From sequence record OR544954: a stretch of 64,000 nucleotides of DNA; one strand, given 5' to 3'. Position 1 is the first letter of the stretch. The number at the start of each line of letters is the position of its first letter. Source of the DNA: Escherichia phage vB_EcoM_EP32a. The notes beneath the pieces were generated by a model that did not search any database, had not been told where the DNA came from, and worked only from the letters and a program-made list of their open reading frames with translations. Both the position numbers and the translations under genes were made by a program. Positions 1-33,091 of this stretch are shown in pieces.

Positions 1-264
1 AGAAACAGTATCCCCGCATGAAATTGGGTCAGCCATTTGAACGGCCTTTTTACCGGTGACGTATACTTTAGATGTACGAGGTTCAGTAACACCTCCATGA
101 GTCTCGTATGGTTTTTTAATTTCTGTATGAGGTGTTATTTGGTCTCCTGCCACAAGAACAGGAATACCGCCGGTGAACACTTTAGATTGGGAAGCATTTA
201 TTACAGTAGGAGGCCATGCTTCATGACCTGTTGTAACGCACTTGTCGTAACTTAAGCCAGACAT
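1..264 (-). CDS. 5.4: PAAR-repeat baseplate spike tip protein gp5.4, N-terminal part (gene runs past window start)
   Basis: Minus-strand ATG at 264-262; translation [33 protein letters not shown]... is recognisable as T4 gp5.4; sits directly downstream of the gene 5 operon. Confidence 0.8.
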
Positions 265-6594: not shown

Positions 6595-6607
6595 TTTTTA
6601 CAAAACA

Positions 6608-6637
6608 GTTTACATAAGGATGATGGTGTGTTACTAT
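6608..6637 (+). promoter_or_regulatory. early sigma70-type promoter (GTTTAC -35, TACTAT -10) within a palindrome
   Basis: GTTTAC at 6608-6613, -10 at 6632-6637, inverted repeat aggatgat...atcatcct around the -10. Confidence 0.5.
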
Positions 6638-6671
6638 CATCCTATCAAATAAACAGCCTCAAGGAAATAAA

Positions 6672-6959
6672 ATGAAAACCTATAAAGAATTTATATCACC
6701 TGTTGCTAACGTTTCTACTCTGACCGAAGCATCCCTTACTTCTGAAGTTATTAAAACAAATAAAGGACGTGAGGGTAAACCAATGATTAGTCTGGTTGAT
6801 GGTGAAGAAGTAAAAGGTACTGTTTACTTAGGGGATGGATGGTCTGCTAAGAAAGATGGCGCTACTATTGTTATCTCTCCGGCTGAAGAGACTGCACTGT
6901 TTAAAGCTAAGCATATTTCTGTAGCTCAGCTTAAAATTATTGCAAAAACTCTTCTGTAA
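6672..6959 (+). CDS. ipI: internal protein (ipI-like) with capsid targeting sequence
   Basis: N-terminal MKTYKEFI is the T4 CTS consensus; 95 aa, same as the T4 IPI precursor; T4 ipI position after 57B. Confidence 0.7.
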   Translation: MKTYKEFISPVANVSTLTEASLTSEVIKTNKGREGKPMISLVDGEEVKGTVYLGDGWSAKKDGATIVISPAEETALFKAKHISVAQLKIIAKTLL

Positions 6960-6963
6960 GTAG

Positions 6964-6992
6964 TTTACATGCTGATAGGACTATGTTATAGT
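6964..6992 (+). promoter_or_regulatory. early promoter cassette (GTTTAC ... TGTTATAGT) with palindrome around the -10
   Basis: GTTTAC 6964-6969, 17-nt spacer, TATAGT 6987-6992, flanked by ataggacta / tagtcctat. Confidence 0.55.
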
Positions 6993-7029
6993 AGTCCTAT
7001 CAAATCAAATGAGTAAATGGAGAAATAAA

Positions 7030-9659: not shown

Positions 9660-9824
9660 ATGACTACTTTAATTATTTGGTTCGATGAAAATGAAGAAAC
9701 ATACTGTGTGAATATTGGTGAAAGTCCAATGCCTGAATTTGAATCCTCAGATAAAAACTCTGTTGTATCTTGGGCTGAAGGTTATAAAGCCGCTAAAGGT
9801 GACGTTGAAATAATTTACATCTAA
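9660..9824 (+). CDS. small hypothetical protein (54 aa)
   Basis: ATG after AAGGAG, downstream of a promoter-like TACTATAGAC element; below the ORF-track size cutoff. Confidence 0.4.
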   Translation: MTTLIIWFDENEETYCVNIGESPMPEFESSDKNSVVSWAEGYKAAKGDVEIIYI

Positions 9825-9870
9825 GTAAGTTTATGTTATAGTAATCACATCAAATAAAGAGGAAAACAAA

Positions 9871-12709: not shown

Positions 12710-12907
12710 ATGTCTCGTGAATTAGATTGTGCTGTACGTACGGCAGTAGCTGCTCTGGAAAACCTGTTCCAAATTGCAACAGAAGAACGCGAAGAAGTTA
12801 CATTATGGATTGAAGATAACGCAGGTCTGAATCTCCAGGACGCGATCTCATTATCCCACAATAGTATCACTGTTCAAGGCTGGGTATCATCTAGTTATTC
12901 TTGCTAA
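12710..12907 (+). CDS. small protein, C-terminal QGWVSSSYSC (paralog 3 of 3)
   Basis: ORF after AAGGAAA SD. Confidence 0.5.
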   Translation: MSRELDCAVRTAVAALENLFQIATEEREEVTLWIEDNAGLNLQDAISLSHNSITVQGWVSSSYSC

Positions 12908-12913
12908 AACAGT

Positions 12914-12948
12914 TTACAACAAGATAGGGCTATGTTATAGTAGTCCTA
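12914..12948 (+). promoter_or_regulatory. early promoter cassette (GTTTAC ... TGTTATAGT) with palindrome
   Basis: agtttacaacaagatagggctatgttatagtagtcctatcaaaacaaatggag. Confidence 0.5.
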
Positions 12949-12969
12949 TCAAAACAAATGGAGTCCACA

Positions 12970-14194: not shown

Positions 14195-14274
14195 TTTCAC
14201 AAAACAGTTTACAAGGTCTGTAGTTGTTGATACTATAGACCTATCAAAACAAATGAGTGAATGGAGATATAAAA

Positions 14275-14475
14275 ATGACTACTTTGAATAAACGTTTCGG
14301 TAAAGCTAAACCTGGTTGTGCAGCAGAACGTCGTTATGTTTTCGCTCAGTTAGAAGATGTAGAGTATCAGATTAATCAAGTTCACATTACTGGTATCGAG
14401 CCTATGTGTGGCCTTGAAGCTCTTCGTGAAGTTCGTGATGGGTATCGTCGTGACATCGAAGAAATGTCAAAATAA
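14275..14475 (+). CDS. hypothetical protein
   Basis: ATG after a promoter cassette and aatGGAG leader. Confidence 0.45.
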   Translation: MTTLNKRFGKAKPGCAAERRYVFAQLEDVEYQINQVHITGIEPMCGLEALREVRDGYRRDIEEMSK

Positions 14476-14533
14476 GTGTACAAACTGATAGGACTATGTT
14501 ATAGTAGTCCTATTAAAACATGAGGAGAATATT

Positions 14534-26697: not shown

Positions 26698-26791
26698 AGG
26701 GGGTTAAAATATTTTTAAAAAGTAGTGTACATGCTTTTAGGATATGTTATTATAGACCTATCGAAACGAAATGAGTAAATTGGAGAATAAA

Positions 26792-27909: not shown

Positions 27910-28197
27910 ATGGATTTTATGCAAAAAATTAAAGCCGCAGTCGAACTGTATGCTCATCGTATGGTTAGTTCTACGATGCAATATAGTGAGGAGGTTCGCC
28001 ATGACTCTTCCTTGAAAGGAAAAACTAAAGCCTTAATTACCTTAGATCGTTTGCAAAAGAATGCCATAGAGATGCTCCAGTACGACAAGGGTGTATATAA
28101 GAAAGAACAGGAAGAGAAACTTAAATCTGAAAAATTACAAAAAATCCCGAAGTCTGTTTGGTTCAGTGGAAAAAATACCGAAAAAAGTTTCTTTTAG
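27910..28197 (+). CDS. hypothetical protein
   Basis: 95-aa ORF. Confidence 0.4.
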   Translation: MDFMQKIKAAVELYAHRMVSSTMQYSEEVRHDSSLKGKTKALITLDRLQKNAIEMLQYDKGVYKKEQEEKLKSEKLQKIPKSVWFSGKNTEKSFF

Positions 28198-28255
28198 TTG
28201 TTTACAAGGTCTATGGTTATGTTATTATAGACCTATCAACTACTGGAGGTAAAAC

Positions 28256-29841: not shown

Positions 29842-29896
29842 TGTACAACCAAGGATGGTTGGAGTATAATAAATTTTTCAACATGAGGAATATAAA

Positions 29897-30727: not shown

Positions 30728-30789
30728 ATCAGTTTACAACCAAGGATGGTTGGAGTATAATGAATCTATCTTAACGAGAGGAAAATATT

Positions 30790-31740: not shown

Positions 31741-32045
31741 TGAAACTACGTCTTTTAGAGGATATTGACATGAGCACTAATCATGGCTTGGTTAAGTTTA
31801 TTGACGATAGTTCAAAGATTGAATTTGTTCAGCGAGATAAAATCCACGGTGAAGAAGAGTTCGTTCCTCCGGCATGGAACGAAATAATGAAAATGGTTGA
31901 ACGACGTGAAAATGCTGCCAAATCGGCAGCAAAACATCCATGCCCGGAATGTGGAACTATCCAAGTCCAACTGGTTAACTGGACCAGTGATAACTTGAAA
32001 TTGAAATGCCGTAAATGCTTCCACAAATTTGAGAGAACATTATAA
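31740..32045 (+). CDS. zinc-ribbon protein
   Basis: CPECG...CRKC pair; ATGA-coupled. Confidence 0.5.
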   Translation: MKLRLLEDIDMSTNHGLVKFIDDSSKIEFVQRDKIHGEEEFVPPAWNEIMKMVERRENAAKSAAKHPCPECGTIQVQLVNWTSDNLKLKCRKCFHKFERTL

Positions 32046-32458
32046 TGAGATATAGCCTTCGTTGTTTTATCGCAGCTTTAGTTTTTGCTATTATTCCATT
32101 CATTTGGAACAGCCAGAATACTTACATGGAAACTAAAGTAATTCCCGTGGAGGTAGTGGAATTAATCTCAGGCCAATCTACAGGAAAATATTCTAAATTA
32201 GAATTTATTGCAGTCTATAAAGATGAGCAAGGACGAGTTTTTGACAGGCGTATATCACCGTCGTTTTATACGCTTCTGAATAAAGGTGATACGATAGCTA
32301 TAGAAATTCGTGAGATGGATATCAAACAAACTACTAAAGATAACTTGATTTGGTTCTTTGGTACAGTGTTGTTGGTTTCTATCTGTATCACAGGTTTTAT
32401 TACATGTATTGTATTTGGCATTGCATATTTAATCGATGAAAGGAAAAATAATGTTTAA
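32045..32458 (+). CDS. membrane protein
   Basis: N-terminal and C-terminal TM segments. Confidence 0.45.
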   Translation: MRYSLRCFIAALVFAIIPFIWNSQNTYMETKVIPVEVVELISGQSTGKYSKLEFIAVYKDEQGRVFDRRISPSFYTLLNKGDTIAIEIREMDIKQTTKDNLIWFFGTVLLVSICITGFITCIVFGIAYLIDERKNNV

Positions 32459-32714
32459 AGTGTACGGGTATGACTCTACTATTCATAAATGCATTTATTG
32501 CGATAATGCGAAACGATTGCTGACTGTTAAGAAACAGCCGTTCGAATTCATTAATGTTATGCCAGAAAAAGGTGTTTTTGATGATGAGAAAATTGCTGAG
32601 CTTCTGACTAAGCTCGGGCGTGAAACAAAAGTCGGATTGACAATGCCACAGGTATTTGCTCCTGATGGAACTTTGATCGGCGGATTTGACCAACTGCGAG
32701 AATATTTTAAATGA
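32451..32714 (+). CDS. nrdC: glutaredoxin NrdC
   Basis: MFKVYGYDSTIHKCIYCDNAKRLL... matches T4 NrdC; CxYC active site; 87 aa. Confidence 0.9.
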   Translation: MFKVYGYDSTIHKCIYCDNAKRLLTVKKQPFEFINVMPEKGVFDDEKIAELLTKLGRETKVGLTMPQVFAPDGTLIGGFDQLREYFK

Positions 32715-32738
32715 GACCTGCGAGAATATTTTAAATGA
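32694..32738 (+). repeat. tandem direct repeat 2 x 21 bp (CTGCGAGAATATTTTAAATGA) separated by GAC
   Basis: Copy 1 is the last codons and stop of nrdC; copy 2 supplies the ATG of the next ORF. Confidence 0.85.
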
Positions 32739-33091
32739 CATATTCATTAAATCTTAAAGATTTCCAAGATGTATACGAAGTTTGTGCCAATGAACTTGGT
32801 CCTGATGCTCCAACTATTATTGAAGTTTTAAATGTGCTCCCTTCATCATTAGCTTACGAAGCCAAATCATGGGGTTGGAACGACACTGTCGTTCGTGATG
32901 ACCTTTACGTCCTGATGAACGATATGATGGTTAAAAAGGCAGAACCGGTTGCACCAATTGTTACCATTACCGTTGAAGAATATAATCGCCTGCAAGCCAT
33001 TGAAGAGCTTCTGTGGAACATTGAATGTGACCTGCCATCCGGACTAGAATCCTGGATTGATTATGAAGAGCTCAATAAACTCCGGGGTTAA
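32735..33091 (+). CDS. hypothetical protein
   Basis: 118-aa ORF whose ATG lies in the duplicated nrdC 3' end. Confidence 0.5.
   Translation: MTYSLNLKDFQDVYEVCANELGPDAPTIIEVLNVLPSSLAYEAKSWGWNDTVVRDDLYVLMNDMMVKKAEPVAPIVTITVEEYNRLQAIEELLWNIECDLPSGLESWIDYEELNKLRG

Follow-up and report, generated by a model that had tools for sequence, protein, structure and literature searches.

The window, the whole 64,000-nucleotide stretch analyzed here, belongs to a Mosigvirus (an RB69-like T-even phage), and a 24-kb stretch of it is ~97% identical to many Mosigvirus genomes. The genes around the locus lie in the order nrdC.3, nrdC.2, nrdC.7, nrdC, ORF118, 49.1, a small ORF, pin, 49 (endonuclease VII), and nrdD, and those just upstream of nrdC overlap from stop to start by 1 to 8 nt. 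We found that nrdC (32451 to 32714, plus strand) encodes an 87-aa T4-type glutaredoxin/thioredoxin that matches the phrog_22 thioredoxin domain and, weakly, PF00462. The gene lies inside an ORF at 32436 to 32714, and we took the methionine of MFKVYGY as its start, as annotated in relatives. The longest frame begins 15 nt upstream, at 32436 (MKGKI-MFKV...), and its first part, 32436 to 32458, sits in the end of an nrdC.7-like membrane-protein gene (32045 to 32458). The MFKV start is used in most relatives' nrdC annotations; the longer one appears in two records, ATK47 and RB69. In an exact-protein lookup, the only contig on record with the window's NrdC protein was SCS57.

Downstream of nrdC lies ORF118 (32735 to 33091, plus strand), whose 118-aa product matches phrog_11244 over positions 1 to 118 of 118 and is the equivalent of RB69ORF092c/091c. 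We considered whether it corresponds to T4 gp49.2 and rejected this, as the two do not align. The exact ORF118 protein was found on no other contig in the exact-protein lookup. ORF118 is modular. Residues 64 to 118 match phrog_3402, which is labeled "antitoxin," and this part forms a separate ORF, listed as 69 aa, in Tequatrovirus-like contigs. One contig has it joined to a 71-aa N-terminal module that is unrelated. The loci concerned are 32735 to 33091 of the window, 1462 to 1671 of L009, 1426 to 1635 of L010, 1321 to 1710 of L011, and 507 to 671 plus 688 to 864 of the RB69 locus (L027). For the RB69 counterpart, the annotation lists two ORFs (092c and 091c), suggestive of a frameshift or stop in the RB69 gene.

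At the junction of the two genes, the sequence CTGCGAGAATATTTTAAATGA occurs twice on the plus strand, at 32694 to 32714 and at 32718 to 32738, with the spacer GAC at 32715 to 32717. The copies are identical at 21/21 positions. They are the only 2 matches to this sequence in the 64-kb window when up to 3 mismatches are permitted, and 100 dinucleotide-preserving shuffles gave 0 such pairs by chance. A check of gene tails across the window found nrdC to be the sole gene whose tail is duplicated downstream. Copy 1 is native to nrdC, whose coding sequence it closes with the codons L R E Y F K and the stop TGA, and it holds an ATG at 32711 to 32713 that overlaps this stop. Copy 2 is a noncoding stretch that supplies the upstream region of ORF118 and its start codon, the ATG at 32735. 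The initial annotation had given the letters and positions of the two copies and the GAC between them exactly as we find them, and it was also right that the first copy ends NrdC and that the second provides the ATG of ORF 32735 to 33091. It went on to describe the arrangement as a tandem duplication of the nrdC 3' end. The array is an imperfect one for that description: the repeat period is 24 nt, the shared run is 21 consecutive bases, and 22/24 positions are equal. The units are not equal over the whole period, and one 24-nt tandem duplication of a single-copy form does not give the junction.

We compared the junction with those of related genomes, as the initial annotation had proposed. 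When 50,697 phage records were searched with a 656-nt nrdC-ORF118 query, 134 records covered at least 80% of it. The closest records matched either in two pieces spanning 947 nt (656 + 291) or in one piece of 632 nt (656 - 24), and none spanned 656 nt. Likewise, a 136-nt junction query gave spans of 427 or 112 nt among the top matches and never 136 nt in one piece. A search of IMG/VR with ORF118 returned 8 loci, 2 of them close, and we therefore sampled loci from GenBank phage records, from which we fetched and read the junctions of 13 genomes of one form (state B) and 10 of another (state A). The window has a third form, state C, with the junction word AAATGAGACCTGCGAG.

In state A, which is found in RB69 and mar005P1, for example, there is a single copy of the repeat, and the nrdC stop overlaps the ORF118 start as ATGA. 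The mar005P1 junction reads ...TTTAAATGACATATT. In state B, which is found in SCS57 and APCEc01, for example, both copies are present and lie 315 nt apart around a gene for a 98-aa homologue of T4 gp49.3. The spacing is exactly 315 nt in 13/13 state-B genomes. From the searches, we estimate ~77 state-A and ~57 state-B records; the 98-aa 49.3 gene is carried, at an identity of at least 80%, by ~57 records. In SCS57, the copies enclose a segment of 294 nt that reads GTATTG...GAACAATAAC, ending in CAATAAC. It encodes the 98-aa protein, whose gene starts at the ATG overlapping the nrdC stop. This protein belongs to PF26871 (Phage_T4_Y04L)/phrog_4203 and is 42% identical to the product of the T4 region annotated as gp49.3. 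Homologues of gp49.3 overlap the nrdC annotation in several other T4-like genera.

State C appeared in no other collection searched: the 50,697 phage records (top matches), IMG/VR, JGI metagenomes, and GTDB genomes. Searches with the exact junction and with a pattern allowing a 0- to 30-nt spacer gave nothing comparable in IMG/VR or GTDB genomes. In JGI metagenomes, the spacer pattern gave nothing comparable and one unrelated match, L006 (Ga0105252_10136743, positions 8 to 58, minus strand), which reads ...AATAAATGA-(23 nt)-CAACTGCGAGAAAATTTTAAATG on a 1-kb metagenome contig with G+C-rich flanks. L006 contains an exact 20-nt match to the variant copy GAAAATTTT within otherwise unrelated sequence, and it is probably a chance match or a chimeric contig.

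Copy 2 lies downstream of the 49.3 stop in 13/13 state-B genomes, with 0 to 2 mismatches. Position 10 of this copy is A in 6/13 and T in 7/13, and the window has T. The base after ATGA is G in 9/13 and A in 4/13, and the bases preceding copy 2 are TAAC in 8/13 and TAAA in 5/13. Two state-B genomes, PTK (L022) and ST0 (L023), have T rather than A after the ORF118 ATG (ATGT...), which changes codon 2 from Thr to Ser, and PTK copy 2 also has CCGCGAG. The noncoding copy 2 is otherwise well kept, with 0 to 1 changes in 18 nt across the 13 genomes. To judge by this pattern of changes, such conservation would fit a copy of recent origin or, equally, one under constraint because translation starts there.

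This comparison fixes the correct start of ORF118. The initial annotation had proposed that the duplication created the start codon, which we can discard, as the same ATG starts the same gene in single-copy relatives, where it overlaps the nrdC stop as ATGA. Indeed, the ATGA at the end of nrdC (32711 to 32714 in the window, 880 to 883 in the T4 locus L003, and 677 to 680 in the Citrobacter phage Moon locus L005; also in L009 to L011) is a recurrent cassette boundary at which unrelated downstream genes start in different T-even genera. Four genes start at the ATG of the nrdC stop: T4 49.3, Moon ORF84, a 71-aa Tequatrovirus-like gene, and Mosigvirus ORF118. The ATG of copy 1 is the 49.3 start in T4 and in the state-B Mosigviruses and the ORF118 start in state A. 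These four starts lend support to the idea, conceivable if rather doubtful, that the nrdC tail (...GAATATTTTAAATGA, stop plus start) acts as a portable junction module and that genes of the nrdC-pin region are gained, lost, and swapped by crossovers there. If so, the fossil copy before ORF118 and the three allelic states would show that system in action, with crossovers falling at a translation-start sequence, as they do at promoters in the promoter-early stem-loop (PeSL) cassettes.

We next consider how state C arose. State C is state B minus 291 nt. Removing TATTGATT...GAACAATA (291 nt) from SCS57 reproduces the 105-nt junction of the window with 1 mismatch, and there is a single valid placement of this deletion, at the GAC spacer (32715 to 32717). 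The G of the spacer corresponds to the first base after the ATGA of 49.3 (codon 2, AGT), and the A and C correspond to the final A of TAA, the 49.3 stop, and to the single intergenic base ahead of copy 2, respectively. The lone mismatch, at 32727, falls at a site that is polymorphic (A/T) among state-B phages, and 7/13 have the T of the window. The window's nrdC has 6 mismatches to that of SCS57 and at least 14 to that of each of 22 other genomes compared. In all of the state-B Mosigviruses read (13/13), the gene lies between the same two copies, and the bases left in the window match the ends of the cassette, although GAC could alternatively come from an upstream Asp codon.

Thus, a nonhomologous deletion probably removed 49.3 and left both flanking copies, making the junction a scar of gene loss in a variable region. 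We infer both the direction of change and the mechanism from these alignments. According to this model, the ancestor had the order nrdC, 49.3, ORF118, and the final 21 nt of nrdC stood on both sides of the 98-aa 49.3 gene. On the left would have been the real nrdC end, and its ATGA would have formed the nrdC stop and the 49.3 start. A single nonhomologous deletion of 291 nt in the window's lineage would then have taken all of 49.3 except its 5' ATGAG and the final A of its stop codon, bringing the copies to 24 nt apart. We also considered whether 49.3 had moved elsewhere in the window and rejected this, as we found no gp49.3 homologue elsewhere in the 64 kb. Because both copies remain, this deletion differs from a repeat-mediated one, which would have left a single copy, the RB69 state.

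Several observations count against the deletion. There is no direct microhomology at its end points, which is unusual among phage deletions. The lost segment begins with TATTG and ends with CAATA, a 5-nt inverted repeat to which we give little weight and which may be due to chance. The parental haplotype, ATGAGT...TAAC-CTGCGAGAATATTTT with T at position 10 of copy 2, is absent from the 13 state-B genomes sampled, so one extra substitution, a gene conversion, or an unsampled recombinant is needed. Finally, mar005P1, a state-A phage, is identical to the window within 30 nt on either side of the junction.

The last two observations bear on a local duplication, which comes close to the reading of the initial annotation. 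Slippage in an RB69-like ancestor of state A would have duplicated the final 27 nt of nrdC (GACCAACTGCGAGAATATTTTAAATGA) in tandem, and the second unit would later have lost CAA; another route is a 24-nt duplication with two subsequent substitutions. A 27-nt duplication plus a 3-nt deletion in mar005P1 gives the 105-nt junction with 0 mismatches. The window copies are identical at 21/21 positions, an Asp codon GAC lies 6 nt before copy 1, and state A is the commoner form in the genus. This explanation keeps some weight as long as the exact parental state-B haplotype is unsampled. Against it, two independent structural changes are needed within 27 nt, while the flanks are free of indels over ~3.4 kb; the deletion route requires one event and a known polymorphism. 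We found no indels and ~120 substitutions between the window and either SCS57 or mar005P1 over ~1.7 kb on each side, which makes a one-indel history much more probable than a two-indel one. A single 24-nt tandem duplication in any of the 10 state-A relatives still differs from the window at 2 or more positions, since the inserted unit begins with GAC and the unit before it has CAA in that place. Nor do the ends of the proposed unit share microhomology. The perfect 27-nt duplication intermediate, AAATGAGACCAACTGCGAG, was not found with the junction query in the 50,697 phage records or with the 0- to 30-nt spacer pattern in IMG/VR, JGI metagenomes, and GTDB genomes. Lastly, a local duplication makes the match of the spacer to the ends of the relatives' cassette a coincidence. 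We therefore rate it as unlikely and below the deletion. Of the scar that the initial annotation proposed, the illegitimate recombination stands, and the slipped or tandem duplication most likely does not, as the copies already exist 315 nt apart in 13/13 state-B relatives. The wider flanks, with 122 mismatches to SCS57 and 127 to mar005P1 and ~97% identity to both state-A and state-B phages, cannot give the direction of change because these genomes are mosaic.

We also considered a junction that is not natural: an error of assembly or sequencing (such as a consensus made chimeric by a mixed A/B population), a product of in vitro recombination, or a 49.3 deletion made in the laboratory. In its favor, state C is unique among the collections searched, the window's exact ORF118 protein has no second contig, and 291 nt is a multiple of three. 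Collapse of a 21-nt repeat in an assembly graph, however, gives state A and not two copies spaced by GAC. The junction ATGA-GAC-CTGCGAG contains words, those across ATGAGACCTGCG, that are absent from states A and B, so misjoined reads or a chimera of the two would not make this junction. A clean engineered deletion normally keeps the stop codon or removes one repeat, whereas here the stop codon itself is cut. Elsewhere, the region is collinear with that of relatives. Taken together, these points make such an origin highly improbable.

Because G...AC flank the 291 nt, the sequences themselves fit either direction of change, and state C could in principle be the precursor, with the duplication coming first and state B produced later by insertion of 49.3 between the copies. 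State B, though, has its left junction in common with T4 (the 49.3 N terminus is M-S-I-D-L, compared with M-I-E-L in T4), so that this junction is ancestral, and 49.3 overlaps the nrdC annotation in several other genera too. In addition, the insert would have had to land without a start codon and in frame after ATGAG, and state C is known from one genome compared with ~57 for state B. We regard this order of events as the least credible of all, with next to no chance of being correct, and retain the loss of 49.3 from a state-B ancestor.

In T4, nrdC and 49.3 share the same ATGA overlap, and since this is the T4 arrangement too, state B has an ancestral junction on its left. Between 49.3 and 49.2, the T4 sequence, GAAAAATGAAT, lacks the nrdC tail, which argues that the right copy was imported with ORF118. 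On the basis of these junction sequences, copy 2 is best read as an older fossil of an nrdC 3' end that came with ORF118. As a fossil nrdC tail, it implies that ORF118 once adjoined nrdC directly, as it does in state A (RB69-type genomes). A genome with nrdC-49.3 and one with nrdC-ORF118 would have given rise to state B by crossing over, unequally or illegitimately, and the fossil tail would be the record of that older event. The 21-nt repeats of state B are in turn an obvious substrate for a deletion that can regenerate state A, which explains how the RB69-type state can arise from one bearing 49.3.

The deletion would also have left a short reading frame at the junction. Because 291 nt is 97 codons, the 49.3 frame is kept, and what remains of it is a 7-codon mini-ORF at 32711 to 32734 on the plus strand (MRPARIF*; ATG AGA CCT GCG AGA ATA TTT TAA). 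It starts at the ATG that overlaps the nrdC stop and ends in a TAA directly followed by the ORF118 ATG. States A and B have an ATGA overlap of the nrdC stop with the next start; in the window, the nrdC stop and the ORF118 start do not overlap and lie 20 nt apart. Judged from the layout of the frames, the mini-ORF could serve as a bridge that relays termination-reinitiation coupling from nrdC to ORF118. ORF118 may also simply initiate on its own leader. The 18-nt leader and ATG of ORF118 are the same as in states A and B, with a GAG motif 10 nt upstream and an A/U-rich spacer, so at the level of sequence its expression signals are unchanged. Copy 2 is in the nrdC frame as well, and read-through of the UGA would add DLREYFK to NrdC. 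Scans of the plus strand found no promoter-like or terminator-like site at the repeat, and we found no stable hairpin or significant RNA structure there (z = 0.5). We therefore rejected a promoter, terminator, or RNA-structure role for the repeat.

The apparent tandem duplication is better understood as what a lost gene left behind. It provides a small, clean illustration of the shuffling of small early genes at stop/start overlaps in T-even phages. Outside annotation and the comparative genomics of phages its significance is small, as it reflects the ordinary plasticity of the T-even variable region.

The locus can be set beside several known systems. Like the target-site duplications made by mobile elements, the state-B repeats are direct and flank an inserted gene. 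Scans of one state-B relative found no match to a nuclease, transposase, or integrase and no terminal inverted repeats beyond the 5-nt TATTG...CAATA. We rejected this origin, as the insert encodes only the small 98-aa PF26871/phrog_4203 protein. An unequal crossover between two gene orders better accounts for a 21-nt duplication lying exactly at a gene end plus start codon.

PeSL cassettes allow T4-like phages to shuffle their modules (Arbiol et al. 2010; Comeau et al. 2014, PMC4122927). As in these cassettes, the variable gene is bordered by repeats of a short, conserved regulatory sequence, which is a possible crossover point. In contrast to them, the 21-mer joins a coding tail to a translation start rather than a promoter to a terminator, and it occurs at one locus only; the repeat contains no early-promoter consensus joined to a stem-loop or terminator. 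Elsewhere, the window does carry PeSL-like direct repeats, in families of 36 to 89 nt (GTTTACA...TATGTTATAGTAGTCCTATC), that resemble T4 early promoters joined to stem-loops. One family lies at 6603 to 6653, 6958 to 7008, 9808 to 9858, 12907 to 12957, 14202 to 14252, and 14471 to 14521, and others lie at 26706 to 26762 plus 28181 to 28237 and at 29844 to 29879 plus 30735 to 30770.

In phage operons, genes can be translationally coupled through an ATGA stop/start overlap, and termination-reinitiation can proceed through short ORFs. States A and B have such an overlap at the nrdC stop. The window keeps the ATGA, now leading into the 7-codon ORF, which ends in TAA directly before the next ATG; unlike in coupled pairs, its nrdC stop and ORF118 start do not themselves overlap.

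The closest parallel is with indel polymorphism in T-even genomes. Such genomic polymorphism was reportedly described by Repoila et al. in 1994 (EMBO J), and Singer and Westlye are said to have found in 1988 that T4 rII deletions form between short direct repeats. In the hyperplastic regions of T4-like phages, indel polymorphism has been ascribed to illegitimate or short-homology recombination (PMC2993671; PMC4122927). Two features set the window apart from these indels: its deletion used neither the 21-nt repeats nor direct microhomology, so that both copies survive, and its allele occurs in no other record searched. The likenesses are that a small nonessential early gene is present or absent between conserved neighbors, that the boundaries fall at gene starts and stops, that short direct repeats flank the variable gene, and that the single-copy state of RB69 is the exact product of recombination between those repeats. 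The window therefore carries a third allele, so far unique, at a junction that is otherwise dimorphic in Mosigviruses for the presence or absence of 49.3, and this is a well-known kind of variation.
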